The notes under the pieces are model-generated. The model saw only the letters and a list, made by a program, of their open reading frames with translations. It was not told where the DNA came from and made no database searches. Source: Candidatus Poribacteria bacterium (GTDB lineage Bacteria; Poribacteria; WGA-4E; WGA-3G). From it: DNA of 64,000 nt. Where the stretch lies: positions 384,001 to 448,000 of the forward strand of contig CAXXUA010000003.1 in NCBI GenBank assembly GCA_963663765.2. Direction: 5' to 3'. The translations under genes were made by a program, and so were the position numbers. Positions within the stretch are counted from its first letter, which is position 1. The number at the start of each line of letters is the position of its first letter. Shown here in pieces: positions 18,269 through 47,082 of this stretch.

Positions 18269-21200
18269 CTACTTCACAATCAACATCTTACGCAGATATG
18301 AATAGTCCCCTGCCTTCAGTTGATAAAAATAAACACCATTCGCAACGCGTTCGCCGACTGCATTCCGACCATCCCAATACCCCGCACGACTCCGATCCGT
18401 GTAATATCCCGCTTGTTTCTGACCAAGATCTAAATGACGCACGATATTGCCTTGAATATCGTAGATCGTGATAGAAACAACACTCGGTTTATTGAGTTGA
18501 TAAGGAATCCACGTTTCAGGATTGAACGGGTTTGGGAAGTTCGGAAGCAGTGCAGTTGTTTCTGGTCGCTGCGAGTCAGCACTGCTTTGCAGCGAAGGTG
18601 CTCCAGTTCCTTCATCATCAGGGAGAACCTCTAACGGCTGATCGCTACTGTTATTGAAGGCATAGCCTGAATGGCCAGAGGGTAATGAAGGATACATTGT
18701 AGCATCAATGCTCACACCTATACGAGATACTGATATAGTCGTTGCATCAGTATCAACTACAAATGTGTCACTATAAATGCTTCCAGCTGAAATAGTGGGC
18801 TGCTGGGAACGAATTCCGACAAGCCACTCACCACAAAAACCGAACAGACATAACTTCACATGTGTTAGGACATCCACCTGCATATCAAAGGGTGCTGCTG
18901 TGTTCACTTTCACCCTAACGTCCGCGGTTTTAATATCGCTATCGCTATCAGCAACCCTTTCCATTGACAAAACAATTGCTGGTGTTCCAGAATTACCAGA
19001 AAGGTCTAAGGTGCTTAAGGATAACCCACTGAAGATACCATCAGGAAGAGAGGTTCCTAATAAATTATCACTGAGGTCGAGGGATGTCAGTGAACTCATC
19101 CCATTAAAATCACCAGTGGACAGCGATGAAATTGACTTACTTGAAAGATTCAACGCGGTAATACTTGCAAGGTGGGCACCTGTGATGTCGCTTGCAGAAG
19201 TCACCCCATCAATAGCGGCAACGATAGCATCTCTAACAGCAGCAGTGCGGTCAGCGACTGCAGGGGACGGTCCTCCAATAACATTGATCGTAACACGCGT
19301 TGTCGCTTTCAGTCCAGCCGTATCCGTTGCCTCTATGTCAACACTAAAAGTTCCAGCTGCCAATTCGGCTTTGTTTTGGAGTTGCGCTGTTGCCTGAACC
19401 GCGTACCCATCCGAACCGGTATAGGCTGCGGTTGTCGTCGTGGTAAGTTGGAACAAATCGACATTCGTGCCGCCAAGTGAGAAGGTAAGCGTATCGCTAT
19501 CATCATAGTCGTAAGCAGTATAAATGGAACCTAAATTTGTGCTGGCAGCATTCCCAGCATTGAAACTTAATGTCGGTTCATTATCTGATGAAATAAGCGG
19601 AATCTCATTGGTATCGATCACAGTGACCGTTACCGAGATGGAATCGCTTCCATTGTTGGTGTCCGTTGCTGTAATCGTTAGCGTATGAGATGCTGTAGTT
19701 TCATGGTCTAAACCAATACCCTGCAACTGACCACTGGATTGAATTCGGAAAAGAGATGATGAATTGGTAATAGCATAAGTGAGTGTATCGTTATCCGCAT
19801 CCGTTGCAGTGATCGGATCCCCAATATTTTCCCATGATAATGACAGAACATCTGCTGTATAAGCTGTCTCATCAATGGAGCGGGTGACGGATTCACCGTC
19901 AGTGAAAGTAGGGTCGTTGTTCTCGGTTACATTGGTAATGTTGATGGTCACCGTGATAGTGTCTTTGCCATTGTTCGGCTTCGCATCAGATGCTGTAATG
20001 ATGACGGTATAAGAAGTCTTCGTTTCAAAATCAAAAGTTGTAGCAGTCGTCAGCTGCCCGGTTGAACTATTCACACTAAACGATGCAGCATCTGTCCCAC
20101 TCAGCGAATAGGACACCGTGTCACCACTGTCTGGATCAGTCGCCGTGAAGGCAGGACCGACGTTGCTACCAGATGCAGTATTTTCCGGTATGGAACGGGT
20201 AGCGGTTGCGCCATCACTGAACGCAGGAGGTTCGTTCGCCACCTCCGTCACGTCCGTAACTTTGATCGTCACCGCAATGGAGTCTGTGCCTTGATTCCCA
20301 TCAGATACAGAGAGCGTAACAGAATAGGAATTCTTCGTCTCATAATCCAAGTCCGCCTTCGTCTTGATTTGACCAGAAGTGCTAACAACATCAAACGAAG
20401 CAGCATCCGTGCCACTCAGCGTGTAGGTTAACGTGTTCGCGGGTTCATCCTCATCTGTTGCAGCAACAGTCGAACCGATATTCGAATCTTCCACCGTATT
20501 TTCAGCAACAGTTAGAGTAACGCTTGTGCCATCCGTAAAGACAGGCGCATCGTTGATATCGTTGACGTTGATTGTAACTGTCGTAGTCCTATTGTTAGAA
20601 CCGTCCGTCACACTTATGAATACTGTATAAGAGTCTTTCGTTTCATGGTTGAGTGCGGCACTCGTTTGTAGCTGCCCAGTTGAACTGACAATAGTGAAAG
20701 AGTCGTTATCCCGTTGTCCTGATGGCAAACTGTAAGTCAGTTCATCATTCTCGTCCGGATCCGTTGCACTGACAGGTGAACCGATATTTGTACCAGATGC
20801 CGTATTTTCGTCAACAGAACGCGTAATGGTAGCAAACAAATTAACCGACAACTCATCGAATTCAGGTGGCTGACTCCCAGGGAAATACTGACCGACATTG
20901 ATTGTCACTGTGATGCTATCGGAAAGCGGTGTATCCGTATCCGCATCTGTATCTGTTTCATTATCAGTGGCAGTAACGACCACCGAATAGGTTCTCTTGG
21001 TATCAAAGTCAAGTTCAACAGCAGTTCTCAACTGTCCTGTGGTAGAATCAATCGTAAATGACGCAGCATCGGTGCCACTGAGCGTGTAGTTCAGGACATC
21101 TCTATCCTGATCAACTGCGTCAACAGGATTACCCACAATTGTGCCGATAGCAACCTCTTCGCCAACAGTTCGGGTCGTTGTTGTGCCTTCATCAAATTCT

Positions 21201-24200
21201 GGCGCATCATTTGCATCCGTAACATTAATTGTCACCGCGATAGTATCTGAGAGATTACCATCCGATACAGTGATCGTCACTGAATATGAGGCTTTCGTTT
21301 CATAGTCAAGTGCGGCACTCGTTTGCAGCTGCCCGGTGCTACCAACAATACTAAAGGATGCCGCATCCGTACCGCTGAGCGAGTATGTCAATGTGGTGCC
21401 TGGATCAGCATCTGTTGCAGTAACTGCACTGCCGATGTTCGTTCCTGATGCAGAATTTTCTGCGACTGAACGCGATGTGCTCGTACCTGCGACTGAACGC
21501 GATATGCTCGTACCATTAGTGAACACAGGGGCGTTCTGAGTCACAACCTCGTTTAAGTCTGTAACACTAATCGTAACCGTAATATCGGTTGAATTCGTGC
21601 CATCCGAAGCAGTGACGGTCACCGTATACGATGGCTTCGTTTCAAAGTCAATTGCGGTACTCGTCGTCAGCTGCCCCGTTGTTCTACTAATACTAAAGGA
21701 TGCCGCATCCGTGCCACCCAACGTATATGTCAATGATTCACCTTCTGGGTCAGTCGCACTCAAAGCACTTCCGACACTCGTCCCTGTACTGACGTTCTCT
21801 GCGATAGCACGCGTTGCACTTGAACCATCCGAAAATGATGGTGCTTCATTCACATCCGTTACCTTGATGTTCAATGAAAGCGTGTCAGTGGCACCTTTAA
21901 GGTCAGTCACTGTCAGGACTATGGAATAGTCTTCTTTCGTTTCATAGTCCAATTCTGTATTTGTATATACCTCAGTAATACTAAATGTAACGAGGGGTCC
22001 ACCAATAAATATAGCCGTTAAATCGAGTCTACCGTTATCGCTAACGGTAAACAGAGCGGCATCTGGACCACCAATAGAACTTCTCATCTTATTTTGATGG
22101 CTTATGTCTTCATCTGCCACATAGATTGCTGCAACGAGCGATCCTATATCTGAATTCTCCGCAATTTCAAACTCTCTCACATTGTCCATAATATCTATGA
22201 ATGTGTAGAGTGGTTCAGGATATGTTTCACCAAGATGCGCATCAGCGAAGAAAGGGGAATGGTTGTTATACGCATGGTTCCCGTGTGCACTGATCAGATG
22301 AACATTCACGGTAATCGTATCTGTGCCTCCATTGCTATCTGATACCGTTATTGTCACCGTAGATTTTCTGAATGCGTCATCCCAATAACTGAAACCAACA
22401 CCGCCTACTTTGACTGACAGCTGGCCTGTTGCGCTATTAATGTTGAACCTATTGGCATGTGTACCACTCAGGCTATAGGTCAACGTATCATTATTCGCAT
22501 CGGTCGCAGTAATGGGATCACCGACATTTGTACCTGCATTCGGTTGTGATTCAATTAAACGATACGTGCTATCCCCTTCGGTGAAGACAGGTGCAACGTT
22601 CGGTCCAACAACTTCTGTAACATCGGTTACATTGATAGTGACGGTAATGCTATCCGTGCCACCATTGCCATCGGAAACATTCACCGTGACGGTATAGGAG
22701 GTTTTCGTTTCATAATCCAAGGCTGCATTTGTTTGGAGTTGTCCGGTTGTGCCAACGATTGTGAACGAAGCTGCATCCGTGCCACCTAACGTGTAAGTAA
22801 GCGTATCCGTGAGATCTTGATCCGTCGCAGCAACAGGCGTACCGATATTCGATCCGCTTTCTGTATTTTCTGCGACAGACCGCGTTGTGCTAAGACCATC
22901 GGTAAAAGTAGGAGCATTGTTTGTGATGACTGGCGTTTGTTCTGTGCTTTCGTTTTCTACGTCGGTCACATTGATCGTGACAGAAATGCTATCGCTACCA
23001 CCTCTGCCATCGGAAACATTCACCGTGACGGAATAGGAGGTTTTCGTTTCATAATTCAAGGCTGCATTTGTTTGGAGTTGTCCGGTTGTGCCAACGATTG
23101 TGAACGAAGCTGCATCCGTGCCACCTAACGTGTAAGTAAGCGTATCCGTGAGATCTTGATCCGTCGCAGCAACAGGCGTACCGATATTCGATCCGCTTTC
23201 TGTATTTTCTGCGACAGAGCGCGTTGTGCTAAGACCATCGGTAAAAGTAGGTGCATTGTTGCTTGGTGTTTCTGGTACGTTTCTCTCAACTTGTTGTTGT
23301 GTGCCTTCATTTTTGACATCGGTCACATTGATGGTAACGTTGATGCTATCGCTACCACCTTCGCCATCAGAAACGGTGACCGTTACTGAATACGAGTTCT
23401 TCCGCTCATAATTCAGAGCATTTTTCGTTTGCAGCTGCCCGGTTGTGCTCACAATATCAAATGTAGCAGCATCCGTGCCACTCAACGTGTAGGTGAGGGT
23501 GTCATCACCGTTTGCATCAGTTGCCTCAACGGGTGTGCCGATATTCGTGCCGGCTGCTGTGTTTTCTGCAATAGAACGTGTGGTTGACGTGCCATCTGTG
23601 AACACGGGTGCTACGTTTTCAACTACATCGGTTACATCAATAGTAACAGTAATCGTATCACTCAGGTTATTATCAGTGACATTGACTATGACCGTATATG
23701 AGTCCTTTGTTTCAAAGTCCAGTGGTGCTCTTGTTTGAAGTTGTCCTGTGGAAGCAACAATTGTGAACGAAGATGCATCTGTGCCAGTCAATGAATAGAC
23801 AAGTGTATCAGAACTATTTCCATCCGTAGCAGCTACTGGTGTGCCGATGTTCGTGCCGGGTGCGGTGTTTTCTGCAATAGAACGTGTGGTTGACGTGCCA
23901 TCTGTGAACACGGGTGCCACGTTTTCAACTACATCGGTTACATCAATAGTAACAGTAATCGTATCACTCAGGTTATTATCAGTGACATTGACTATGACCG
24001 TATATGAGTCCTTTGTTTCAAAGTCCAGTGCTGCTCTTGTTTGAAGTTGTCCTGTGGAAGCAACAATTGTGAACGAAGATGCATCTGTGCCAGACAATGA
24101 ATAGACATGTGTATCAGTACTATTTCCATCCGTAGCGGAAACAGGCGAACCGATGTTCGTGCCGGGTGCAGTGTTTTCTGCGATGGAACGTGTAGCATCT

Positions 24201-26746
24201 GTCCCTTCCGTAAATACGGGAGCAACATTCACTGCCTCAAAGATTATCAGTGGCAAGTCGGATGACTTTGTCAAAGCATAACCGTTATGGGATGTGGGTA
24301 TACTCGGCAACGTGCCAATATTCACGGTAACTGCGCCAAGTGTATTGAGTGTTCTTGTAACGGCGAGTGTTCCGCTTTCGACACTGCCTTGTGAGATGGT
24401 GACACTGCTTGCGCTGTCTGCTGCACTGCCGTTCGCGACAGTAATTGGCAACACAACATCAAAAGGTGCACCGATGTGTATCACAGCTTTAAACTGATCT
24501 GTGCCGACCTTCTCTAAAGAGACTTCAAACGAGAATGGCGCGCCTGAATTACCTGTTAGCTGCAAGGTTGTCAAAGAGGTCATTCCTGCAAAGATGCCAT
24601 CAGGGAGACTACTCAGTTGGTTGCTTTCGAGATTGAGTGTGGCAAGAGCTAACAGTCCGGTAAAATCATTGCTTTGCAACGAAGTGATGGAATCGTTACT
24701 GAGATCCAACGAGGTGATCGCAGCGAGTTGTGCTTCACTAACATTTCGGCAGTCTGTTACTCCTGGTACTGCGGCAGCAATCGCATCTGCAACTGCTTTC
24801 GTCACGTTACATGTTGCGGATTTTGAAAGCGCATACCCGAAATGGTTTGTTGGTAAAGCGGGTAACGCTCCCATATCAATATATGCACCGCTCACAACAG
24901 GCACTGTTAGTGTTGAACTTCTGATAGTACCTTTTGACACTGTTAATGTTCCTAATTCTTCAGGTCGACTAACGCCATCTGTAAGGAGGAGTGGCACCGC
25001 AACATCAAAGGGTGCGCCTGCAGGTATCACGATCCTATATTGATTGTTACTTACCTGCTCTAATGACACAAAAATCGGCATCGGACTCACGGTGTTGCCA
25101 CCTAACCGAAGCGATGTCAATGAGGTTAATCCGTTGAATATACCATTGGGGAGTGCACTCAAACTGTTGCCGTAAAGGTTCAGAGTTCTAAGATTGGTAA
25201 GTCCAGAAAAATCACCTGCTTTTAAGGCGGTGATGCCCTTATTTCGGAGATTAAGTGAACCTATCTCCCTGAGATGTGCATCGGTAACATCAGATGCATC
25301 CGTAACATTCAGCACTGCCGCGACGATAGCATCACGCACTTCGGGTGTGCGGTCACTCACGCCAACAGACGCTGTGGATATGGTAGTATCCGCTACATCT
25401 ATAATACTTATCACTACTGAAATTGTATCGGTATCAGAGGTATCAGAAACGGTAATTGATACGAGATAGACACTTTTTGTCTCATAATCCAGGGCAGCTT
25501 CGGTTTTCAGTTGACCTGTCGTAGACTCAATCGCAAACGATGCCGCATCTCTCCCACCAAGCGTATAGGTTAAGGTATCATCCGAATCCTCGTCTGTAGC
25601 ACCTACTACCGTACCGATGTTTGTATTCGCTGCAGTGTTCTCAGCGATGGAACGCAAAGTAATCGTACCATCAGTAAAGGAAGGGGCGTTATTTTCAACC
25701 TCCTCCCCTTCGTCATCCGTTTCTGTTACGACCTCTTCAGTTACATCCGTAACATTAATCGTGACTGTAATCGTATCACTACCACCATTGCTATCTGATA
25801 CTGTAACTATGACGGTATAGGCGTTCTTCGTCTCATAATCCAGTGCTGCTTTCGTTTGGAGTTGTCCGGATGTGCTCACAATATCAAATGATGCCGCATC
25901 CGTACCACCAAGCGTGTAGGTTAACGTATCATCCGTATCCTCATCCGTCGCACCAATCGCAGTACCGATATTTGTCGTTGCTGCTGTGTTCTCAGCAATG
26001 GAACGTGTCACTGTCTCTCCATCTGTAAACATAGGGGCGTTGTTCACTGCTGTGGTCTCTTCGCTTAGTGGATCTATTTTGGCAAGTTCATATCCGTAAT
26101 GATTTCTTGGAAGCGATGGCAAAGTGTCACCGATTTCAACAGTTGTGCTGACTATAGAGGCTGCAGTAAAAGATGCACTTTCCACACTGCCTTTGGACAC
26201 GGTTTGATTCCCTAACGCTTGGGGGTTTACGCTATCTGATATTTCAAGGGCAACGGTAATGGCAAACGGGGCACCTGTTGGTACGACCACCTTGTAATTA
26301 CTACCATCAATATGCTCAACGTATATGCCGACTTGCATCGGGTCAGTGGTGTTTCCACCTAACCGCAACGTTGTCAACGCTGTTAGTCCTTCAAAAATAC
26401 CGTTGGGCAGTCTGCTCAGTTGGTTGCCATAGAGATTTAGGCTTGTCAGTCCTGTCATCCCGTCAAAATCACCAGATTTTAAAGCTGTGATGCTTTTGTT
26501 CCGCAAGTTAAGGCTTGTGATTGCTGCGAGATGTGTATTCGTTACATTTGCAGCATCCGTTACACCATCTACTGCTGCGACGATTGCATCCTGCACTTGT
26601 GTTGTTCGATCACTCACGGCAAGGATTGTCTCTATGTTTTCTTCTTGTGCTTCTGTTACAATTTGGAAATTAAAAATCAATAAAAAGGTTGCTAATACGA
26701 ATACTACATGTTTAAGGTTCTTTATATTAAAGTTCTTTATATTCAT
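18269..26746 (-). CDS. Giant secreted adhesin-like protein (2825 aa): LRR modules, many cadherin repeats, C-terminal FlgD-like sorting domain
   Basis: Signal peptide; LxxLxLxxN LRRs; repeated N.AP.F...AEN...ATD.D...LDYETK cadherin motifs; C-terminal LLPNFPNPFNPETWIPYQL...WDGRN...YFYQL. Confidence 0.93.
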   Translation of the reverse strand: MNIKNFNIKNLKHVVFVLATFLLIFNFQIVTEAQEENIETILAVSDRTTQVQDAIVAAVDGVTDAANVTNTHLAAITSLNLRNKSITALKSGDFDGMTGLTSLNLYGNQLSRLPNGIFEGLTALTTLRLGGNTTDPMQVGIYVEHIDGSNYKVVVPTGAPFAITVALEISDSVNPQALGNQTVSKGSVESASFTAASIVSTTVEIGDTLPSLPRNHYGYELAKIDPLSEETTAVNNAPMFTDGETVTRSIAENTAATTNIGTAIGATDEDTDDTLTYTLGGTDAASFDIVSTSGQLQTKAALDYETKNAYTVIVTVSDSNGGSDTITVTINVTDVTEEVVTETDDEGEEVENNAPSFTDGTITLRSIAENTAANTNIGTVVGATDEDSDDTLTYTLGGRDAASFAIESTTGQLKTEAALDYETKSVYLVSITVSDTSDTDTISVVISIIDVADTTISTASVGVSDRTPEVRDAIVAAVLNVTDASDVTDAHLREIGSLNLRNKGITALKAGDFSGLTNLRTLNLYGNSLSALPNGIFNGLTSLTSLRLGGNTVSPMPIFVSLEQVSNNQYRIVIPAGAPFDVAVPLLLTDGVSRPEELGTLTVSKGTIRSSTLTVPVVSGAYIDMGALPALPTNHFGYALSKSATCNVTKAVADAIAAAVPGVTDCRNVSEAQLAAITSLDLSNDSITSLQSNDFTGLLALATLNLESNQLSSLPDGIFAGMTSLTTLQLTGNSGAPFSFEVSLEKVGTDQFKAVIHIGAPFDVVLPITVANGSAADSASSVTISQGSVESGTLAVTRTLNTLGAVTVNIGTLPSIPTSHNGYALTKSSDLPLIIFEAVNVAPVFTEGTDATRSIAENTAPGTNIGSPVSATDGNSTDTHVYSLSGTDASSFTIVASTGQLQTRAALDFETKDSYTVIVNVTDNNLSDTITVTIDVTDVVENVAPVFTDGTSTTRSIAENTAPGTNIGTPVAATDGNSSDTLVYSLTGTDASSFTIVASTGQLQTRAPLDFETKDSYTVIVNVTDNNLSDTITVTIDVTDVVENVAPVFTDGTSTTRSIAENTAAGTNIGTPVEATDANGDDTLTYTLSGTDAATFDIVSTTGQLQTKNALNYERKNSYSVTVTVSDGEGGSDSINVTINVTDVKNEGTQQQVERNVPETPSNNAPTFTDGLSTTRSVAENTESGSNIGTPVAATDQDLTDTLTYTLGGTDAASFTIVGTTGQLQTNAALNYETKTSYSVTVNVSDGRGGSDSISVTINVTDVENESTEQTPVITNNAPTFTDGLSTTRSVAENTESGSNIGTPVAATDQDLTDTLTYTLGGTDAASFTIVGTTGQLQTNAALDYETKTSYTVTVNVSDGNGGTDSITVTINVTDVTEVVGPNVAPVFTEGDSTYRLIESQPNAGTNVGDPITATDANNDTLTYSLSGTHANRFNINSATGQLSVKVGGVGFSYWDDAFRKSTVTITVSDSNGGTDTITVNVHLISAHGNHAYNNHSPFFADAHLGETYPEPLYTFIDIMDNVREFEIAENSDIGSLVAAIYVADEDISHQNKMRSSIGGPDAALFTVSDNGRLDLTAIFIGGPLVTFSITEVYTNTELDYETKEDYSIVLTVTDLKGATDTLSLNIKVTDVNEAPSFSDGSSATRAIAENVSTGTSVGSALSATDPEGESLTYTLGGTDAASFSISRTTGQLTTSTAIDFETKPSYTVTVTASDGTNSTDITVTISVTDLNEVVTQNAPVFTNGTSISRSVAGTSTSRSVAENSASGTNIGSAVTATDADPGTTLTYSLSGTDAASFSIVGSTGQLQTSAALDYETKASYSVTITVSDGNLSDTIAVTINVTDANDAPEFDEGTTTTRTVGEEVAIGTIVGNPVDAVDQDRDVLNYTLSGTDAASFTIDSTTGQLRTAVELDFDTKRTYSVVVTATDNETDTDADTDTPLSDSITVTINVGQYFPGSQPPEFDELSVNLFATITRSVDENTASGTNIGSPVSATDPDENDELTYSLPSGQRDNDSFTIVSSTGQLQTSAALNHETKDSYTVFISVTDGSNNRTTTVTINVNDINDAPVFTDGTSVTLTVAENTVEDSNIGSTVAATDEDEPANTLTYTLSGTDAASFDVVSTSGQIKTKADLDYETKNSYSVTLSVSDGNQGTDSIAVTIKVTDVTEVANEPPAFSDGATATRSIPENTASGSNVGPAFTATDPDSGDTVSYSLSGTDAASFSVNSSTGQLTTATTFDFETKTSYTVIITASDAKPNNGKDTITVTINITNVTENNDPTFTDGESVTRSIDETAYTADVLSLSWENIGDPITATDADNDTLTYAITNSSSLFRIQSSGQLQGIGLDHETTASHTLTITATDTNNGSDSISVTVTVIDTNEIPLISSDNEPTLSFNAGNAASTNLGSIYTAYDYDDSDTLTFSLGGTNVDLFQLTTTTTAAYTGSDGYAVQATAQLQNKAELAAGTFSVDIEATDTAGLKATTRVTINVIGGPSPAVADRTAAVRDAIVAAIDGVTSASDITGAHLASITALNLSSKSISSLSTGDFNGMSSLTSLDLSDNLLGTSLPDGIFSGLSLSTLDLSGNSGTPAIVLSMERVADSDSDIKTADVRVKVNTAAPFDMQVDVLTHVKLCLFGFCGEWLVGIRSQQPTISAGSIYSDTFVVDTDATTISVSRIGVSIDATMYPSLPSGHSGYAFNNSSDQPLEVLPDDEGTGAPSLQSSADSQRPETTALLPNFPNPFNPETWIPYQLNKPSVVSITIYDIQGNIVRHLDLGQKQAGYYTDRSRAGYWDGRNAVGERVANGVYFYQLKAGDYSYLRKMLIVK

Positions 26747-27012: not shown

Positions 27013-28104
27013 TTGACGCGCTTAGAAAACACGGTTATGACTTCGGGGCAACTGATAAATACTTTAAACGATATTATTGAACGCTGCCACAATCGGCACG
27101 AAAAACCGCTACGACAACGGAAAACAATTGTAACACCTGCGATCTATAAAGGGTTGATATACCATTTCACGGTGTATTGTGCACATAGAAAACCGATCCG
27201 GCTGCATGATTTAGCGTTTGCGAACATCTTCTTTATGCCGATAGGCGGTGCGCCGCGGCTTGACCGCATGCCACAGTCTTTTGGTGGGAAACGATTCTTG
27301 AAACGTTAAGGAATGGAAGATTGGGAGATACGACAATGGCACACATCTTGGGGTATACAGATATACACAGGGATACCGTCTAAAATAAATGATCCCTGTT
27401 GGCACGATATAGAATTCAAATACGCGGTAATCTGCGCTGCACCCGAGGCTGTTCTCACTTGTATTGATAGACTCATTAGCGTGGTGTCAAGTCCGTGATT
27501 GACAATCACAAAATCTGGCGGACTCCGTTTTTCCTGTCGAATCCCGAATTATCTGCACCCTAACACAGTTGATAAAAGATTTTACATCTACAAAGATGTC
27601 TCAACCCAGGGAACTCAGCAGCATCGACAAGTGTATCTCGAAATCCGTGGTGAATCAGGTCATAGCCCATGGGACGCACGTTATGAGTTACTACGGGGTA
27701 ATCTGTTAGCACCACCTGTGATTGCTAAAGAGGTGATCTTTACCTCGCTTGAAGTGTTACGTAATGAACTTGACGGTTCCGAGTTGGTCAGAACATCTGA
27801 CACAGAAACGTTTGTCGGCTCGTTACCATCACTCGGTTCACATAAATTGGATCTCGCAAAGGAAGCATTTTTTAAGCGAGGGTACGTTTATCTGCTACAA
27901 GAAAACAAATGGCATCACTGGACACAACACACCACCGAGAAGAATGACACAAACGTACTGTTATGGGAACACGACGGGACTATCTGGATACGTGCAACGA
28001 ACACCGATGTTGGCTTACCGATGGTCGATACACCTATCACTGCTGTATGGAATGATACTGGTATCCTGTCACCGATTACCGAATGGGACTGTCGGTGTCT
28101 GATA
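27013..28104 (+). pseudogene. Decayed hypothetical gene, possibly primase-polymerase-like N-terminus
   Basis: Three ORFs in one frame separated by TAA 27307 and TGA 27496; TKSGGLRF motif; truncated by the MITE array. Confidence 0.55.
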
Positions 28105-28733
28105 ACACCATTTTCATGTGAAAATGTCTCATTAGCAGCGGAAATCGGGTAGGAGCAACATCACGGTCGCGACCGGGAGGGCGCTCCTACCGAAGAGAGT
28201 AACACCCTGCCAGTAAACAGTAGAATTCCATAATGAGAAAAGATTTATGAGAATGGGTATAATAACATTTTCAAGGGATAATGTCTCATTAGCAGCGGAA
28301 ATCGGGTAGGAGCAACATCACGGTCGCGACCGGGAGGGCGCTCCTACCGAAGAGAGTAACACCCTGCCAGTAAACAGTAGAATTCCATAATGAGAAAAGA
28401 TTTATGAGAATGGGTATAATAACATTTTCAAGGGATAATGTCTCATTAGCAGCGGAAATCGGGTAGGAGCAACATCACGGTCGCGACCGGGAGGGCGCTC
28501 CTACCGAAGAGAGTAACACCCTGCCAGTAAACAGTAGAATTCCATAATGAGAAAAGATTTATGAGAATGGGTATAATAACATTTTCAAGGGATAATGTCT
28601 CATTAGCAGCGGAAATCGGGTAGGAGCAACATCACGGTCGCGACCGGGAGGTCGCTCCTACCGAAGAGAGTAACACCCTGCCAATAAACAGTAGAATTCC
28701 ATAATGAGAAAAGATTTATGAGAATGGGTATAA
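28105..28733 (+). repeat. Head-to-tail array of four 157-bp MITE units
   Basis: gtctcattag at 28126, 28283, 28440 and 28597; same unit as 17290-18231. Confidence 0.95.
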
Positions 28734-28811
28734 TAACATTTTCATGGGATAATGGTATAACATTATTTTCGTCGTAATTCTTGACTAAAACATGAAAACT
28801 GCGTAAGTCCT

Positions 28812-29184
28812 GTATATAAACAGATCTTACTATTTTTTGAGTCTTAAATAACGCCAAAACTCCCCTTTGCTTTTGGCGTTCAGTTACCATATTTTTTTCG
28901 AGCGACCTCGCAGCTTCCAGTTGTTCCTTTAGGAGTTCCACCTGTTCTTCCAGGACTGCTATGACCGCCCCGTTTTCAGCGTTCCCATTTGTTCCCACTT
29001 CGTGGTTCGGGGAATTCCCGTTTTCTCTCAACTGGTAAACGCACTGGAGTTCTGCTACATCAATAACCTTTTTACCACGCTCGTCTTTTTCAAAAGAGAT
29101 TGTCCCGTTGTCCATATCTCTGTAGATGCCAGACTGCGATACTTCAAACATTTCTACGGCTTTGGAGACTCGTATTTTTGACAT
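28812..29184 (-). pseudogene. Plasmid-type HTH/coiled-coil protein (entry exclusion 1-like), 3' end disrupted by a MITE
   Basis: MSKIRVSKAVEMFEVSQSGIYRDMDNGTIS...IDVAEL..VY; paralog at 40702-41085. Confidence 0.6.
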
Positions 29185-29319
29185 TTCCACTTTCTCCCAA
29201 AAACTCCAATTGGTAATTGTCATGGGTAATGATGGGAATTGCGGGGTGGTGACAAAAAAAGACCCTAGGTTGGGTTTGACGAGGGTAGTGAGAAGGTTAA
29301 CTTTTTAGAGATTCGCGTA

Positions 29320-32512: not shown

Positions 32513-32778
32513 TTAGGTTTTATACTCGTTTCTCCGATCATGCAAATCTTTGTGACAATATTCACACAGAGCCACGAGTTCAAAGAGCGGTTCATTTCCA
32601 ATATGGTGATAGCGTTTGTGATGGACAACTTCCGCACGCGATCCGCAGATGCAGAGGTAGTCATCTCGTTTGAGAACCTCTTTCCGTTCTTTTTCCACTC
32701 TGCGGATTGGATATAAAGCGGATAGTATTTGTTCCAGTCCTTTGATATTAAGCCTGCCCAGTCTATTGTTTCTGCCAT
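32513..32778 (-). pseudogene. HNH endonuclease split by a -1 frameshift (copy 1)
   Basis: YIQSAEWK / KERKEVLKRDDYLCICG..AEVVHHKRY...LVALCEYCHKDLH. Confidence 0.75.
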
Positions 32779-33518
32779 TATTTGATAATAAATGTCACTT
32801 CATAAGGTTCAGGGGCAGAACCTTGAACAAAAAAATGAATATGTTCGCTTGTTTCCATATATCTTTTCTATGTTAAAAGGTGGGTACAACCAGTAAATAG
32901 CATAATTATTATGATCATCAATATTATTGCTATTAACCCGAATAATGACACAAGATTCCAATTGCCGCGTAGTTTAGCCCCTCTGGTTAGAAATGCAAAC
33001 ACGACAAAACAGATCATCAAAATTGTCTTCATATATACGACTCGTTCTTTAAATTATTCTGATATTTCTCAAGAATATATCAGGACAAATGCAAAGTACG
33101 CCTGAAATATAATTATAATTGAACGCAATTGTGACGAAGTATAACATGAACCGTGAAGAATTACGATAAAGTCTTAACAATCCCCACACATGCGTCCACG
33201 CATATACGCACATCTGAACATGTGCAGCAACGCACAAACGCATGTCCGCATATGTGCGTATCCGCACATATCGAGATGTCCGATGAAAACAATAGCACTT
33301 CTCTCGAGAAAAGGTGGGACAGGTAAAACGACACTTGCTATACATATACCAGTCGCAGCAGAAAAGACAGGACATACCGCAGCCTTGTCAGATGAAAACG
33401 CTCATCGGCTGGACAGACGGATATGGAAATAATGAAAAAGCGTATGGTCTGGGGGATCGTAAAAAAATAGACATGACCATAGAACTCGCGGATGGCAAGA
33501 TACATTTACAGCCACATC
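32529..33518. repeat. ~1-kb duplication, copy 1 (HNH + parA remnant)
   Basis: Near-identical to 39532-40522, offset 7003 bp. Confidence 0.95.
33283..33432 (+). pseudogene. ParA ATPase N-terminal remnant
   Basis: MKTIALLSRKGGTGKTTLAIH (deviant Walker A); truncated; duplicated at 40286. Confidence 0.75.
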
Positions 33519-33668
33519 TCGAATTTCCACTTGGCAAGAATCACAAGGTCTGAATAGATACATAACGCCATTAGTACGTATCAGGTGGTAGAGTATACAA
33601 ATGCATTGGTCGGAGGTAGGACGCTGAATAAGTCTTTTGAGAAATGGGAAGTTAGTGCGTAAAAAAAC

Positions 33669-36496: not shown

Positions 36497-37207
36497 CTAT
36501 TTTATATTTAGTATTGTCAACTTCTCGGCTAAGACTCTCAGGTTTATAGATTTTTGTTGTATAAAACTGTCCCAAGAATTATAGCATCGAATAGATGCTT
36601 TTTCAGGTTTTGGAGCGTCTTCAGTGTCTATCAATTTCAAAGTTAAGTCTTCCATTGTTCTTTGTATTTTCTGTGCAGTAGGGTAGTCTGGGGAGGCAGG
36701 AATTTTATGTGCATCAATAAAACCTCGACAGAGATTGTTAGGGTTGTTTTTAAGGTTAGTTTTCCAATGCCTCCTCTCGTGTATTTCTGTATCTGTTCCT
36801 CCAAAATTAACCCGTTGATGTTCAATGTCTGATGCCCAACGTTCAAAATCATCAGTTAACTTTGTAAATAAAGAACATGATACTATAAACAAGTCAAGAT
36901 CCGAGTCAATATCGTGGAAAGGAGTGCCAATCTTACAAGGGACAAGAGATTTACCTAAATGTGCGCTTCCTACCAACCCTATTTCTTTTGGTTTCACTTC
37001 TAAGCGTTCTGTAATCCAACAACGAAGTGAATCATATATTGCTGGACACTTTAAAAAAACAGACGGTATTCCTTCAGATAGCCATAGTCTTGCAATTGCA
37101 TCTTGGGCATCTTTACCACCTTCAAGGGCTACTTCTAGTAACAACTTTGGATCAGGATAGTGTTCACTCAATTTTCGGAGTGGTGCTACTATTTCAAAAG
37201 GTTTCAT
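36497..37207 (-). CDS. Pol-beta-superfamily nucleotidyltransferase-like protein
   Basis: IGLVGSAHLGKSL...DSDLDLFIVS (hG[GS]...DxD). Confidence 0.75.
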   Translation of the reverse strand: MKPFEIVAPLRKLSEHYPDPKLLLEVALEGGKDAQDAIARLWLSEGIPSVFLKCPAIYDSLRCWITERLEVKPKEIGLVGSAHLGKSLVPCKIGTPFHDIDSDLDLFIVSCSLFTKLTDDFERWASDIEHQRVNFGGTDTEIHERRHWKTNLKNNPNNLCRGFIDAHKIPASPDYPTAQKIQRTMEDLTLKLIDTEDAPKPEKASIRCYNSWDSFIQQKSINLRVLAEKLTILNIK

Positions 37208-37805
37208 TATGAGATTCCTGACAACGTGTTAGACTTTTACTCATATTATCGTATAGTCTTATTAGATGACGAGCTCTACGTAGGATTTTCGCATAGTGTT
37301 CAGTACTACATTCTCGAGGTTCTGGATATTTTATTCGGGCTACAAGTTTAGCAGCTTCAAACACGTTTATAGATTTTGGATCAATGTCCAATTTTGTACA
37401 AGCCTGCTGAAAATTGTTCATCCTCCAACCATAGTAAGCGACCCATAAGTAAAGTATTGGCAATCGATCTCGCGAAACATATCGCGTTATACGGATAGCA
37501 AAATAAATTTCAATAATTTTTCGACTCAACGTCTGTTCATTACGACCTGTGACTGCTCTGACTAATTGCATGGCAATTGTTGAACCGCCTTGTCTTATTC
37601 CGCAGATGGATGTTTTCCAGAATGCTCTACAAAGAGCAAATAGGTCAACGCCAGGGTGTTGATAAAAGCGATGGTCTTCACCAGCAATAAGGAGTTTACA
37701 CATTTGGTGTGTTGGAATGGGCAAATCAGTTTGAGCGATTTCTAACTCCAGTTTTTTGATTGATTTATACAAGTGTTCCCATTGGGCTTTAATTGGTACT
37801 CGCAT
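37194..37805 (-). CDS. Stand-alone GT51 transglycosylase-domain protein lacking a membrane anchor
   Basis: EDHRFYQHPGVD, QGGSTIAMQLVR, RKIIE, EAAKLVARIKYP; no hydrophobic N-terminus. Confidence 0.85.
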   Translation of the reverse strand: MRVPIKAQWEHLYKSIKKLELEIAQTDLPIPTHQMCKLLIAGEDHRFYQHPGVDLFALCRAFWKTSICGIRQGGSTIAMQLVRAVTGRNEQTLSRKIIEIYFAIRITRYVSRDRLPILYLWVAYYGWRMNNFQQACTKLDIDPKSINVFEAAKLVARIKYPEPRECSTEHYAKILRRARHLIRLYDNMSKSLTRCQESHNETF

Positions 37806-38277
37806 TAGGCTAATCCATATACAATTATTCTAAGATCGTAATAGAGCTTAAGTTTATATTGTCCCGTTAACTTCCAAAGTTTTACCTCTCATGATCTTGC
37901 GACTTTCAGACACTTGTACAAAGTAAATAATCCACGTTTTAGGTGTTGTATCTGGTAATTCCATTGATACCTCCACATAAAATTATGTTAACAATAATTA
38001 CGAAGTATAGCATGAACCGTGAAGAATTACGATGAAATAATTAACATTCCGCACACCCACATATTCGCACATGTGCAGCAACGCACAAACGCATATAGGC
38101 ATGTCCGCATATGTGCGTATCCGCACATATTGAGATGCATTTGGATTGTCAACCTCCAATTGTTTATGCCGTATTATTGTACCGAGATATAAAAACACGC
38201 CTCATATTTATTAATTTCTTTACAAGATCCACAAGTTAAGTTATATTATTGACTATTGAATATAATATCAACACATA

Positions 38278-39485: not shown

Positions 39486-39531
39486 GTTTGAATTAACACA
39501 GGTTATGTTAACTCACCAGCCGCCTTATTCC

Positions 39532-40522
39532 TTTCTCCGATCATGCAAATCTTTGTGACAATATTCACACAGAGCCACGAGTTCAAAGAGCGGTTCATTT
39601 CCAATATGGTGATAGCGTTTGTGATGGACAACTTCCGCACGCGATCCGCAGATGCAGAGGTAGTCATCTCGTTTGAGAACCTCTTTCCGTTCTTTTTCCA
39701 CTCTGCGGATTGGATATAAAGCGGATAGTATTTGTTCCAGTCCTTTGATATTAAGCCTGCCCAGTCTATTGTTTCTGCCATTATTTGATAATAAATGTCA
39801 CTTCATAAGGTTCAGGGGCAGAACCTTGAACAAAAAAATGAATATGTTCGCTTGTTTCCATATATCTTTTCTATGTTAAAAGGTGGGTACAACCAGTAAA
39901 TAGCATAATTATTATGATCATCAATATTATTGCTATTAACCCGAATAATGACACAAGATTCCAATTGCCGCGTAGTTTAGCCCCTCTGGTTAGAAATGCA
40001 AACACGACAAAACAGATCATCAAAATTGTCTTCATATATACGACTCGTTCTTTAAATTATTCTGATATTTCTCAAGAATATATCAGGACAAATGCAAAGT
40101 ACGCCTGAAATATAATTATAATTGAACACGATTGTGACGAAGTATAACATGAACCGTGAAGAATTACGATAAAGTATTAACAATCCCCACACATGCGTCC
40201 ACGCATATACGCACATCTGAACATGTGCAGCAACGCACAAACGCATGTCCGCATATGTGCGTATCCGCACATATCGAGATGTCCGATGAAAACAATAGCA
40301 CTTCTCTCGAGAAAAGGTGGAACAGGTAAAACGACACTTGCTATACATATACCAGTCGCAGCAGAAAAGGCAGGACATACCGCAGCCTTGTCAGATGAAA
40401 ACGCTCATCGGCTGGACAGACGGATATGGAAATAATGAAAAAGCGTATGGTCTGGGGGATCGTAAAAAAATAGACATGACCATAGAACTCGCGGATGGCA
40501 AGATACATTTTACAGCCACATC
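39532..40522. repeat. ~1-kb duplication, copy 2 (frameshifted HNH + parA remnant)
   Basis: Near-identical to 32529-33518. Confidence 0.95.
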
Positions 40523-40701
40523 GGCAAACATCACATGGCAAGAATTGCAAGGTATGAATAGCAGACACTATGCATTGCTGAGCGCGCTTGCCGTAAACTT
40601 TTAGATGTCGAGTGGGTAACACGCCAAACAAAGACAGGTGGTGGGTTTCCTGCCACCTATTATCTTTTTAATCTGAAATAATTGAGAAAATTGCCTTTTG
40701 G

Positions 40702-41085
40702 TTATGGCGGAGGGAGCATTAACATTTCCGTTTTCTTCTGTTCTGTTTGCAGCATTTCCAACAACTGTTGGCATTCGGTCACCATTTCTTTCTCGCGTGA
40801 CTTTGCATCTTCCAGTTGTTCCTTTAGGAGTTCCACCTGTTCCTCCAGGACTGCAATAACCGCCCCGTTTTCAGTGTTCCCATTTGTTCCCACTTCGTGG
40901 TTCGGGGAATTCCCATCTTCTCTCAACTGATAAACACGTTGGAGTTCTGCTATGTCTATAACCTTTTTTCCGCGTTCGTCTTTTTCAAAAGAGATTGTGC
41001 CGTTGTCCATATCTCTGTAGATGCCAGACTGCGAAACTTCAAACATTTCTACGGCTTTGGAGACTCGTAATTTTGACATTTCCAC
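40702..41085 (-). CDS. Plasmid-type HTH/coiled-coil protein (entry exclusion 1-like)
   Basis: Intact paralog of 28812-29184. Confidence 0.65.
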   Translation of the reverse strand: MEMSKLRVSKAVEMFEVSQSGIYRDMDNGTISFEKDERGKKVIDIAELQRVYQLREDGNSPNHEVGTNGNTENGAVIAVLEEQVELLKEQLEDAKSREKEMVTECQQLLEMLQTEQKKTEMLMLPPP

Positions 41086-41170
41086 TTTCTCCCAACCCCC
41101 AATTGGTAATTGTCAGCGGAGTGGTGACAAAAAGATTTGGGAAAGAATTTGATAAGGTGCGATCAATTAT

Positions 41171-41970: not shown

Positions 41971-43690
41971 CCTACACTCCGCAGTTATGGATCTGGAAAA
42001 TAGACATTTTTTACTTCTATGCCTAAAATGTTGATGATTTGTGTGTGTATTTCATTTAAATTTAATATAGACCTTTGTATATGTTCGTTTTGTTCTATCA
42101 ATAATACATCAACGCCTTCAAACATTTGAAAAATACGCCTGAGTGTTGGTTTTTGCGTGGGTTTACCAACTTGGTTAGGTATTGTTTGTTCTTGTTTTTT
42201 TAGCTCTTGCCGAACCCATCGTTCGGCAAGAGCGTATACAAGTAAAGAAAGTCCCATCACCATCAGTAATGCCATAATCCGCTGGGGTTTTTCAAGATAT
42301 AGACTATCGGCAAAGAATAAGGGGTCTTTCAAAAACCGAAAACCGCGTTCTACAGACACGTTCTGTGCTTTATATGCTTCAAGGATAGTCGCATCGTCAA
42401 ATAAAGTTGTATCCAGTTCATTGGTAGCTAAGACAAATCGGCCTTTGCTGCGTTTGAGTTTTTCAATCGTTTCTATATCATCAATAACTTCACCTTCAAC
42501 CCGATAACGAAAATGTGTCGGTTTATCTGTCTTTTTGGGGCGTCCCGATGTAGTGTAATGTGGAACAGAAATAATGGAGAAACGAAGTTTATGATATTTC
42601 CATGACTTGGCAAGGACTGTTGCCGCAGCTGCCGCAGCTGTATCGGTCTCATACGTTTTATTTTGTAAACGATTGAGTGATGTTTGTGCAGTTGTCTGTG
42701 CTTTGTCAATCTTTTTTACTAAAGTTGCCACTTCACGATGATACGCAGTTTGTGAATAAACAACTAACCACCTTTGTGGAACATCCGCATAGGTGCTATC
42801 TACTGATAGATAACTATATCCATCAAGAGATGCTGGCTGCATATCTTCAGTCGAAATAGTTTGGTAGAGTTCTTTGACAGCTTTGAGTGTTTCCGGCACA
42901 CGCGTAATAAAACGCACATCACGCAGCTTCGCAATGTTTTGTGCTGTATAAAGCGCACTATCCGCTACAAAATAAGGTGCATCACTGCCACGCAGTTGAG
43001 ACAAATATTCTCGGATCGTGTTGGGAAAACTTGTTTTATCAGACTGATTTCCATCAAGTGCTTTGAACCATACAGGGAACTGAGACCGATAAGAACAGAG
43101 AAGTTGAACTACCACTTGTTTGAGATCCGGACGCTGATCGCGACTATACCCGTGGGTAATGTGAATAGCGTGTTCATCAACTGTTTCGGTATCATAGTTC
43201 CCCTGAAAACTAAACGTGGTGCTATCCAGATGAACAAAACGATGGTCAATCTCATAAGTTGATAATGCTTTAGAAGCAACTGTTGCAAAAAGTTCGGTAA
43301 CACCATTTTCATAAAGTGTATCTAAAGCACGCCCAAGACAATCGTCCGTGAAATCGGCAGCACAGAGATGAGGGCGTATCAATAGATCCACCGGTTTATT
43401 TGAAAAAAACTCAGGTGTCAAGTAGAGTGGGCGTGAGACAAAGCCTAAAGCATTCAAGATCATAGCAACAACAGATTCACCCACTGAAACTTTCCGTTTC
43501 GTTGGGGAAATAAAAGTATCAATAGTGTTTATCAAGTCAATACGATCACATACACCAGCTACTATGCCGAGGTGATCTAAACGTTGTGTTGTAAAAGTAG
43601 ATTGAGTGATGATGTTATACTCCTTATATAAAGATATAAAGAGTATAACATAAATACTTAAAATCCGATTAAACAACTGCGGAGTGTAGG
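41971..43690 (-). mobile_element. IS1634-family insertion sequence
   Basis: TIRs cctacactccgcagtt / aactgcggagtgtagg; 6-bp TSD gttgaa. Confidence 0.92.
41985..43676 (-). CDS. IS1634-family DDE transposase
   Basis: LDHLGIVAG, HLDSTT, GYSRDQRPDLKQ, VADSALY, VERGFRFLKDP; true start probably near 43610 after AAGGAG. Confidence 0.92.
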   Translation of the reverse strand: MFNRILSIYVILFISLYKEYNIITQSTFTTQRLDHLGIVAGVCDRIDLINTIDTFISPTKRKVSVGESVVAMILNALGFVSRPLYLTPEFFSNKPVDLLIRPHLCAADFTDDCLGRALDTLYENGVTELFATVASKALSTYEIDHRFVHLDSTTFSFQGNYDTETVDEHAIHITHGYSRDQRPDLKQVVVQLLCSYRSQFPVWFKALDGNQSDKTSFPNTIREYLSQLRGSDAPYFVADSALYTAQNIAKLRDVRFITRVPETLKAVKELYQTISTEDMQPASLDGYSYLSVDSTYADVPQRWLVVYSQTAYHREVATLVKKIDKAQTTAQTSLNRLQNKTYETDTAAAAAATVLAKSWKYHKLRFSIISVPHYTTSGRPKKTDKPTHFRYRVEGEVIDDIETIEKLKRSKGRFVLATNELDTTLFDDATILEAYKAQNVSVERGFRFLKDPLFFADSLYLEKPQRIMALLMVMGLSLLVYALAERWVRQELKKQEQTIPNQVGKPTQKPTLRRIFQMFEGVDVLLIEQNEHIQRSILNLNEIHTQIINILGIEVKNVYFPDP

Positions 43691-43772
43691 GTTGAAGTAT
43701 TTTTATTTATCATAGTGTCTAATTTGACAATAGAAATGACTATATCAGCAATCTGACAGAATAATTTATATG

Positions 43773-43982
43773 CACAATCTGGCAGAATGTGCTACAACTA
43801 CCCGCACAATCTGGCAGAATGTGCTACAACTACCCGCACAATCTGGAAGAATGTGCTACAACTACCCACACAATCTGGAAGAATGTGCTACAACTACCCG
43901 CACAATCTGGAAGAATGTGCTACAACTACCCGCACAATCTGGAAGAATGTGCTACAACTACCCACACAATCTGGAAGAATGT
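43773..43982 (+). repeat. ~6.5 x 32-bp tandem repeat cacaatctgg(a/c)agaatgtgctacaactaccc(g/a)
   Basis: Units start at 43773, 43805, 43837, 43869, 43901, 43933 and 43965. Confidence 0.95.
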
Positions 43983-44401
43983 CTATTATTGGCGAAGGTA
44001 TTGTACTTAGTCTACTATAACATATCAGAATATGCAAGAAAAGATAAACTGAGGCAAGGTTATTTAGTTTTAGGCATTTTAGTCGTTTTCTGAGAAAATC
44101 GCGACCAGGAGGTCGCTCCTACCGGTGGGTTTCTTTTTCAATAATCCAAAAATTAGGAAGACTGAATAAGCCTGAAACTGGGGGGTGTGTAAAGTTTTTG
44201 CACAAACTGCTCACTCTCCATTATAGGGCGGGGTCTCTGTGCCCCGCCGAAACTGATTAAATAAGAGATTGCAGGAACAGGACACATAGGTGTTGTCAAC
44301 ATTAGGAAATATTGTTAATATCAACCATACGTTTCAGTCCCGTAGGGACGATATGTATATAGAAAAACGTGAGTTTGATAGATAGTTTTAGTTGTTACAT
44401 A

Positions 44402-46208: not shown

Positions 46209-47082
46209 GGGTGTGTAAAGTTTTTGCACAAACTGCTCATTCTCCATTGTAGGGTGGGGTCTCTGTGCCCCGCCGCATAGGTGTCAACTTAAGAAAAGTC
46301 AAGTGCTAAATACCCCATCTCGGTAGGCGTGCTTTGTAAGTGCGCCGATAAACCCAGGATTGGCAACGGTGCGCTTACAAAGCACGCCTACAGTTGGGGG
46401 TACGCTTACAAAGCACACCTGCAGGGGAGTGCGGGTGAGTGCGGGGCGCGCTTACAAAGCACGCCTGCAGGGGAGCGCGGGTGACTGCGGGGCGCGCTTA
46501 CAAAGCACGCCTGCAGGGGAGCGCGGGTGAGGGCGGGTGACTGCGGGGCGCGCTTACAAAGCACGCCTGCAGGGGAGCGCAGTTGAGGGGCGCGCTTATA
46601 AAGCACGCCTGCAAGGGAGTGCAGGGGAGTGCGGGGCGCGCTTACAAAGCACGCCTGCAGGGGAGTGCAGGGGAGTGTGGGGCGCGCTTACAAAGCACGC
46701 CTGCAGGGGAGTGCAGTTGGTAGGTGCGCTTACAAAGCACGCCATAGGCGTCAATTTAAGAAAATATTGTTGTCATTTTTCTTGTGGGAGGGTTTTTCAA
46801 CCTCGATTTGAGAGGAAAAGCGCATAAATTCGGGGTTGAAAACCCCTCCCACAATACGTGAAAATCCTTAAATTGACGCTTATGGTGCGCTTACAAAACA
46901 CCAAATCAACGGTATGAATGCCGTTTAGGCATTCCCCGCCTACCTTGAGTGAGAAAATCGGGATTTCAAGGTTTCCCTCCTACAAGAATATGAATCGCTA
47001 AGTTGACACCTATGCGGCGGGGCACAGAGTCCCGCCCTACAATGAAGAATGAGCAGTTTTGTGCAAAAAACTTTACACACCC
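46209..47082. mobile_element. Multiply nested MITE with an internal REP tandem array
   Basis: Outer TIR gggtgtgtaaagtttttgcaca; inner cataggtgtcaact TIRs; about 10 gcgcgcttacaaagcacgcc units; inner taggcgtcaatttaag element. Confidence 0.85.

Follow-up and report, generated by a model that had tools for sequence, protein, structure and literature searches.

In a 64,000-nucleotide stretch of DNA from Candidatus Poribacteria bacterium (contig CAXXUA010000003.1, positions 384,001 to 448,000; the whole of this stretch is called the window below), two overlapping genes on the minus strand form one self-contained unit. The upstream gene encodes a peptidoglycan glycosyltransferase-like protein of the GT51 family that lacks a membrane anchor, and the downstream one a protein, called here the partner, which is probably a nucleotidyltransferase of the Pol-beta type. 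The features of the pair are as follows.

37194..37805, minus strand: GT51 (peptidoglycan glycosyltransferase-like) protein, 203 amino acids (aa), ATG start, without membrane anchor; identified by the open reading frame (ORF) list and PF00912.
36497..37207, minus strand: partner protein, 236 aa, ATG start; N-terminal helical part and a predicted core resembling minimal nucleotidyltransferases (MNT), with a helical insertion.
37194..37207, minus strand: overlap of the two reading frames, 14 bp; the partner ATG falls within the final codons of the GT51 gene.

An initial annotation, made from the sequence alone, had described a 203-aa GT51 protein overlapping by 14 bp a 236-aa protein with an hGS...DxD motif, and both the ORF list and the motifs quoted there agree with this description. 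Translational coupling of the two genes is suggested by the location of the partner start codon inside the end of the GT51 gene.

The two genes had been treated as a pair from the outset, and this is borne out by their conservation among homologs. When one genome per species was scanned, 58 partner loci were found, the hosts being Poribacteria, Acidobacteriota, Nitrospirota, Alpha-, Beta-, Gamma-, Delta- and Epsilonproteobacteria, Chlorobium, Gemmatimonadota, Latescibacterota, Krumholzibacteriia, Bacteroidota and Bacillota, more than ten phyla in all. In all 55 loci that could be tested (55/58), the gene immediately preceding that of the partner, in the same orientation, is a GT51-family ORF; the other three loci have less than 210 bp of upstream DNA, too little for such a test. 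The frames overlap in 50 of these 55 loci, by exactly 14 bp in 25, and are separated by gaps of 4-22 nucleotides in the remaining 5. Joint presence was also evident among 151 sampled genomes of the phylum to which the window belongs: GT51-family matches at E 1e-30 or better occurred in 7, and these were exactly the genomes with strong adjacent partner matches, the partner being in pieces in one of them, while an eighth genome contained only a partner fragment with a stop codon. Moreover, 5 of 150 listed representative clusters consist of natural fusions, one chain of 428-634 aa whose first half carries PF00912 and whose second half is the partner. Linkage, overlapping frames, joint presence and fusions thus establish the two genes as one unit. 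A conserved third gene was sought by all-against-all BLASTP and phmmer comparison of the neighbours; the largest cluster comprised 4 of the 58 loci, and since neighbour clusters reached only 3-4 loci, a three-gene system was rejected.

A variant of the arrangement was observed in a Bacteroidota metagenome-assembled genome (L058:316-1809, plus strand), where the partner follows a 497-aa anchor-less protein. Its GT51 domain looks canonical (PF00912, E 7e-49), and the 300 aa at its C-terminus gave no Pfam match. In this C-terminal region, S-T-L-K and K-T-G-T strings reminiscent of penicillin-binding motifs were noticed by eye.

The GT51 assignment of the upstream protein, made initially from its motifs (EDHRFYQHPGVD, GGSTIAMQ, RKIIE and EAAKLVA, all of them present), was confirmed by several approaches. 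PF00912 matched it with E 6e-30 and 104.4 bits (cut-off 27) over profile positions 24-174 of 178. The profile of the family alignment (A2, 51 sequences) retrieved from PDB the glycosyltransferase domain of Aquifex PBP1a (3nb6_A, E 9.7e-21) and Staphylococcus aureus MtgA (E 2.4e-18). This profile alignment places ED..F..H.G, GGST..QQ, RK..E, LYL...Y.G and RR..L in register, the family motifs being aligned to EDRNF, GGSTITQQ and RKIKE of 3nb6. The motifs of GT51 comprise two catalytic glutamates (motif 1, ED..F..H.G, and motif 3, RK..E) together with G.ST..QQ. Within A2, the catalytic-motif residues E43 and D44, G73, S75, T76 and Q80, R95, K96 and E99, and R177 are all invariant, as are Y124, Y125 and G126, and R157, K159 and P161. 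The AlphaFold model of the protein (predicted local distance difference test score, pLDDT, 83.2) has the lysozyme-like bilobal GT51 fold, with Foldseek matches to 3nb6, 2oqo and 3vmq at probability 1.0, E 5e-5 to 2e-4 and template modelling scores of 0.53-0.63. With its motifs invariant and in register, and a model of the GT51 fold, the protein looks catalytically competent. NCBIfam returned only partial PBP1C, PBP1A and MtgA matches, all far under their cut-offs; identity with the housekeeping MtgA was rejected because the cut-off of the equivalog TIGR02070 was missed (55.5 bits versus 182.65) and the distribution is patchy.

GT51 enzymes are extracytoplasmic wall polymerases and antibiotic targets. 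The protein from the window shares the fold and catalytic motifs with MtgA and with the GT51 domain of class A penicillin-binding proteins (PF00912), but differs from them in the lack of an N-terminal anchor, which is also missing from 107 of 120 listed relatives. In contrast to MtgA, proteins of the window type are always coupled to a nucleotidyltransferase-like gene, and are patchily distributed and mobile rather than universal. The initial annotation had called the protein anchor-less, with the reservation that a true start further upstream could add a transmembrane helix, and no such start was found. The reading frame is open for 211 codons in all, of which only 8 precede the ATG, and no hydrophobic segment is present, the highest 19-residue Kyte-Doolittle mean being 1.05 (threshold 1.6). 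For these two reasons the absence of the anchor is real and not the result of a mis-called start.

A hydrophobic helix is present, at the N-terminus, in the other 13 of the 120 listed homologs. The 15 residues following this helix carry a net charge of +1 to +5 in 13 of 13 cases, and the tip preceding it is neutral or negative in 12 of 13. The two canonical penicillin-binding proteins of the window genome show the opposite charge bias, so that the anchored relatives differ from MtgA and class A penicillin-binding proteins by a reversal of the flanking charges. The positive-inside rule is well established; applied here by inference, it leads to the prediction that the helices of the anchored homologs would keep their GT51 domain at the cytoplasmic membrane face. 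The fusion proteins, in which a nucleotide-using domain and GT51 share one chain with no membrane segment between them, likewise argue for a cytoplasmic GT51, given that the second domain would need nucleoside triphosphates.

Identification of the partner is less direct. It gave no match to Pfam or NCBIfam at E up to 1 and none to any model of PADLOC-DB v2.0.0; a PDB sequence-profile search was empty at E up to 10, and Foldseek found nothing in PDB at E 0.001 or better. The ESM Atlas returned 'hypothetical' clusters only, together with one, ranked 20th, 11% of whose members carry PF01909. Nevertheless, the initial proposal of a Pol-beta-like nucleotidyltransferase is probable in view of invariant motifs, structural comparisons and profile-profile alignment. 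In the window protein the motif reads VGSAHLG...DSDLDLFIV, and in the family alignment (A1, 53 sequences) G80 and S81 as well as S102, D103 and D105 are invariant, which gives the hG[GS] signature followed by [DE]x[DE]; in the model (pLDDT 87.5) the GS and SDxD residues lie within a strand-helix-strand element. An exhaustive VIA-align search ranked highest 1no5_B (Z 5.4), 8xeh_E (4.5), 1wot (4.4), 5yep_A (4.3) and 1ylq (3.8), minimal nucleotidyltransferases accounting for 5 of the 20 best matches, two HEPN-MNT complexes included. In a second structural look, at the list returned by Foldseek, 14 of 17 rows with Z of at least 2 were Pol-beta-fold enzymes (AadA, GrpB, PolX, TUT7, the CCA enzyme, cGAS, Cid1 and URT1). 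When the partner was compared by hhalign with a set of 14 PF01909 ORFs of at least 100 aa from the window genome and 12 relatives, it aligned at E 1.7e-4 and probability 49%, GS being paired with GS and SDLD with SDID. The N-terminal part is specific to the family and contains the LWLSEGIP motif with invariant W42, S44, E45, G46 and P48; R207 and W212 are likewise invariant in A1. Taken together, sequence and model indicate that the partner is probably built on an MNT-like Pol-beta nucleotidyltransferase core, to which an N-terminal part and a helical insertion have been added, and that it is probably active as a nucleotidyltransferase, with the third carboxylate not conserved. The family is large, comprising 283 clusters at 50% identity that were matched at E 1e-30 or better in an exhaustive profile search.

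A sister family of the partner offers a view of the transferase in other company. The window genome contains a 200-aa partner paralog (L005:1213-1812, minus strand), whose frame overlaps that of the downstream gene (L005:201-1232, minus strand; G000:C13), and hhalign comparison of the two families indicates a shared transferase core (probability 99.2%, E 9e-20). The downstream gene encodes a GmrSD_N (DUF262) protein matching the PADLOC models NsnA and PD-T4-2_A, and is adjacent to the sister transferase in 20 of 25 loci of the phylum, which are close kin and not independent. The name 'predicted nucleotidyltransferase' is attached by JGI to 2 of 120 listed members of the sister family. Both pairs are tight two-gene units with overlapping frames; in the sister pair, unlike in ours, the transferase is the upstream gene, lacks the N-terminal LWLSEGIP part, and has a ParB/GmrSD-type protein as its companion. 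That this transferase clade keeps company with both GT51 and GmrSD_N proteins, at least two unrelated enzymes, agrees with a role in regulation or one like that of an antitoxin.

In the window, the pair is located in a stretch of low GC (guanine and cytosine) content that consists of gene fragments and an intact transposase, and is bracketed by a direct repeat:

41988-43676: DDE transposase, intact, identified by Pfam.
32523-33557 and 39526-40561: direct repeat bracketing the pair, 1,037 bp, 98.3% identical, copies 7,003 bp apart.

The initial annotation had described the neighbours of the pair as decayed, and this holds broadly, as judged by Pfam matches in fragments of 52 aa (HNH), 56 aa (N6_N4_Mtase), 171 aa (Mrr_cat_2) and 80 aa (ParA). 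The 1,037-bp repeat holds HNH-like and ParA-like fragments, and a third, partial copy of it is found at 38000-38137, just upstream of the GT51 gene. Another repeat, of 353 bp, joins 28870-29222 with 40765-41115. These repeats suggest duplication or recombination between related integrated elements. A scan for promoters and terminators gave no signal above the level of shuffled sequences.

The pair was also found in the company of defence genes at other loci. In L011, L026 and L032, which represent three phyla, it is inserted among the genes for the subunits of type I restriction-modification (R-M) systems, and its neighbours at other loci include type II, IIG and III R-M genes, Mrr-type nucleases, Dsr1, HEC-01, a DRT reverse transcriptase, and Hhe-like, IetA, GajB-like and dGTPase genes. 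On plasmid pM830MA of Aliarcobacter cryaerophilus it adjoins IS21, DUF4365, PLD, TIR and DUF4917 genes, and is named in RefSeq 'biosynthetic peptidoglycan transglycosylase' and 'hypothetical protein'. R-M or defence matches occur near about half of the 58 pair loci, and PADLOC matches near 7 of 18 and 12 of 16 loci in two batches (Pfam was applied to the neighbours at L006-L029 only, with 65 of 130 neighbour proteins of these loci searched in one batch). No partner homologs were found among 50,697 records of phage genomes. That the pair matches no named system was maintained by the search of PADLOC-DB v2.0.0, where neither protein gave a meaningful match, the best one for GT51 being an unrelated model of 68 positions (E 0.049). 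Full-text searches of the literature, which did not extend to supplementary tables of defence surveys that could list it, gave no description of a pair of an anchor-less GT51 and a nucleotidyltransferase. That the pair is sparse within the phylum (7 of 151 genomes) yet spread over more than ten phyla was counted in favour of a conflict setting, as was the coupling of the sister transferase to a GmrSD_N / NsnA-like gene. The genomic setting suggests a role in conflict with phages or plasmids.

The explanation which we favour, tentatively and at somewhat below an even chance, is that the pair constitutes a mobile conflict module, in which a cytoplasmic GT51 would consume lipid II that has not yet been flipped, under control of the nucleotidyltransferase. 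According to this proposal, the GT51 protein would act at the cytoplasmic side of the inner membrane, the 'wrong' side for its enzyme family, where it would bind lipid II, the undecaprenyl-pyrophosphate-linked wall precursor, prior to outward flipping. By polymerising or otherwise consuming it, the enzyme would tie up the scarce undecaprenyl carrier, and the resulting shortage could stop wall synthesis and lead to arrest or lysis of the cell. The MNT-like partner would keep GT51 in check, most likely by transferring a nucleotide onto it, as MntA does onto HepT, and would release this control when an invader is sensed. It is possible, but less probable than the module itself, that GT51 serves as an immune or addiction weapon, which, once freed from its partner, would polymerise lipid II of the cytoplasmic face and halt or burst the cell before phage maturation. 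We infer all of the following: the cytoplasmic site, lipid II as the substrate, the transfer of a nucleotide as well as its recipient, and the role in defence.

Two known or predicted kinds of systems are among the closest parallels. In HepT-MntA, an MNT antitoxin adenylylates a HEPN toxin (PMC7641770). Our pair resembles HEPN-MNT systems in being an overlapping two-gene mobile module with an MNT-like component, and 8xeh and 5yep are among the best structural matches of the partner. The other component, however, is a GT51 enzyme and not a HEPN RNase, and the partner itself is twice as long as its counterpart, possesses an extra N-terminal part and a helical insertion, is encoded by the downstream gene and falls below detection by PF01909. 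Immune effectors that would attack lipid II before flipping have been predicted by comparative genomics for unrelated domains (PMC12419801). These Min-Wnt (Lipocone) effectors share with the proposed module the attack on lipid II before flipping as a means to stop wall synthesis, but have unrelated folds predicted to cleave the head group, whereas a GT51 polymerase is considered here, and both are predictions.

Several observations weigh against the conflict module. The argument from the positive-inside rule is a heuristic one, drawn from 13 sequences. The fold matches of the partner are weak throughout, with Z not exceeding 5.4 against a safe level of about 8 for the tool, and its third catalytic carboxylate is not conserved: some members have F, T or N in place of D165 of 'GFID'. 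In L061 and L062 (by a frameshift), and possibly in L057, a catalytically intact GT51 stands next to a broken partner; in L061 (2394-2669, Poribacteria WGA-3G) the partner is cut right before the GS motif, with the first 84 residues kept, and the GT51 gene retains every catalytic motif. A constitutively lethal GT51 that has to be restrained by the transferase domain does not fit easily with such loci. The reverse, a frameshifted GT51 next to an intact partner, was found in 2 of 55 loci (L020 and L033). Either GT51 is not lethal alone, or the N-terminal part of the partner suffices, or these loci reflect assembly faults.

Enrichment in defence islands, proposed at the outset as a check, did not emerge, as the neighbourhood count was not above a random control from the window genome. 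This control consisted of 20 places in one defence-rich genome, searched with PADLOC without the Pfam step, and 12 of the 20 had a PADLOC match (E 1e-8) among six neighbours. With promiscuous models removed (TnpB-like, 'mad2', HEAT repeats and candidate PDC), about 19-22 of 58 pair loci remained positive versus 4 of 20 control loci, a difference that is not convincing. Matches in the control were driven by TnpB/Cas12f-like, 'mad2' methyltransferase-like and HEAT-repeat models. Since raw PADLOC matches were equally common at random loci, a quantitative claim of defence-island enrichment was withdrawn.

Two side observations belong to these comparisons. A partner cut right before the GS motif, with the motifs of the upstream GT51 kept, was seen in G149 as it was in L061. 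Genes of the TnpB/Cas12f-like type were present in 5 of the 20 random 12.6-kb regions of the window genome (L127, L132, L133, L138 and L142), and their abundance inflates raw PADLOC counts in this organism.

Among other explanations, the most probable, though unlikely in our estimation, is that both enzymes act on one substrate, the partner, as a small-molecule nucleotidyltransferase comparable to aminoglycoside adenylyltransferases, nucleotidylating a sugar hydroxyl of lipid II or of a short glycan bound or made by GT51, which would yield either a capped, dead-end precursor poisoning wall synthesis or a modified precursor. The natural fusions suggest successive steps on one molecule, catalytic sets are conserved in both proteins, and AadA, an enzyme that adenylylates sugar hydroxyls, tops the second structural look. 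AadA/ANT(3'')(9), which acts on sugar hydroxyls, shares the Pol-beta fold with the partner and provides the best rows of that comparison, but with Z of only 3.3-3.7 the likeness is very weak, and protein-modifying minimal nucleotidyltransferases scored higher in the wide search. No C-terminal helical substrate domain of the AadA type could be recognised in the partner, and there is no resistance context. Loci with a single intact gene also speak against joint action, and we know of no such nucleotidylation chemistry for lipid II. A function outside conflict, which we consider rather improbable, would be an accessory role in the envelope, such as salvage or remodelling of precursors, or resistance to an antibiotic directed at lipid II or GT51, provided by a decoy GT51 and a modifying enzyme. 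The neighbourhood evidence for defence, not significant relative to the random control, the location of several loci (L013, L021, L024 and L027) among housekeeping genes and the AadA-like resemblance of the partner agree with such a role; it is harder to reconcile with the sparse occurrence in the phylum (7 of 151 genomes) and the scatter over more than ten phyla, or with the pair residing inside type I R-M operons and on a plasmid island. It was also counted against this role that antibiotics of the moenomycin type have their site of action outside the cytoplasm.

The roles of the two proteins could also be the reverse of those in the favoured module. Nucleotidyltransferase toxins are well established, MenT and AbiEii blocking tRNAs, and if the transferase were a toxin of this kind, the GT51-like protein would be its antitoxin, or else a sensor detecting, for example, cytoplasmic muropeptides from a wall breach by a phage. 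We regard this as slightly less probable still than the envelope function. The antitoxin is the upstream gene in many pairs, and GT51 is frameshifted beside an intact partner in only the 2 of 55 loci mentioned above. However, a protein that merely binds would not be expected to keep both GT51 catalytic glutamates strictly invariant, the likeness of the partner is to MNT antitoxins and not to DUF1814 toxins, and loci with a broken partner and an intact GT51 exist too. The least probable of these explanations, a small chance in our view, is that GT51 is switched on or off by a nucleotide messenger from the transferase, whose synthesis would be triggered by infection (the CBASS manner) or constitutive (the Panoptes manner). 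Synthase-effector systems of two genes are common, and the GS...DxD enzymes cGAS and CdnE are among the weak structural matches of the partner, which is, on the other hand, far smaller than CD-NTases. The initial annotation had offered two mechanisms, a toxin with a modifying antitoxin and a signal synthase with an effector; the latter appears the less likely of the two because the 203-aa GT51 consists of the catalytic domain alone, in which no sensor module can be recognised, and because natural fusions exist, a synthase and its effector in one chain being unusual for diffusible signals.

Two further features of the window lie apart from the pair. Tandem arrays are present at 28102-28754 (about four copies of a 157-bp unit), 43741-43996 (about eight copies of a 32-bp unit) and 46391-46743 (a degenerate array). 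A 2,825-aa protein encoded at 18269-26746 on the minus strand contains 15 cadherin repeats, a leucine-rich repeat region, bacterial immunoglobulin domains and a Por secretion tail signal, and resembles eukaryote-like adhesins of sponge symbionts.

The existence of a widespread clade of anchor-less GT51 proteins, with intact catalytic residues and locked to a nucleotidyltransferase, is unexpected for this enzyme family. The analysis also defines an unannotated clade of nucleotidyltransferases that pairs with both GT51 and GmrSD_N proteins, and indicates that the RefSeq labels of the pair mislead genome annotation. If GT51 of the conflict module does act on lipid II inside the cell, it would represent a new mode of killing or arrest among immune and toxin-antitoxin effectors, and could provide a natural tool to perturb lipid II and the undecaprenyl pool from within, as well as a GT51 domain that is small and soluble and could serve studies of structure and of inhibitors. 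Should its use as an immune or addiction weapon prove true, this would add a new effector chemistry to bacterial immunity, and the protein would be the first member of the GT51 family with a known cytoplasmic action.

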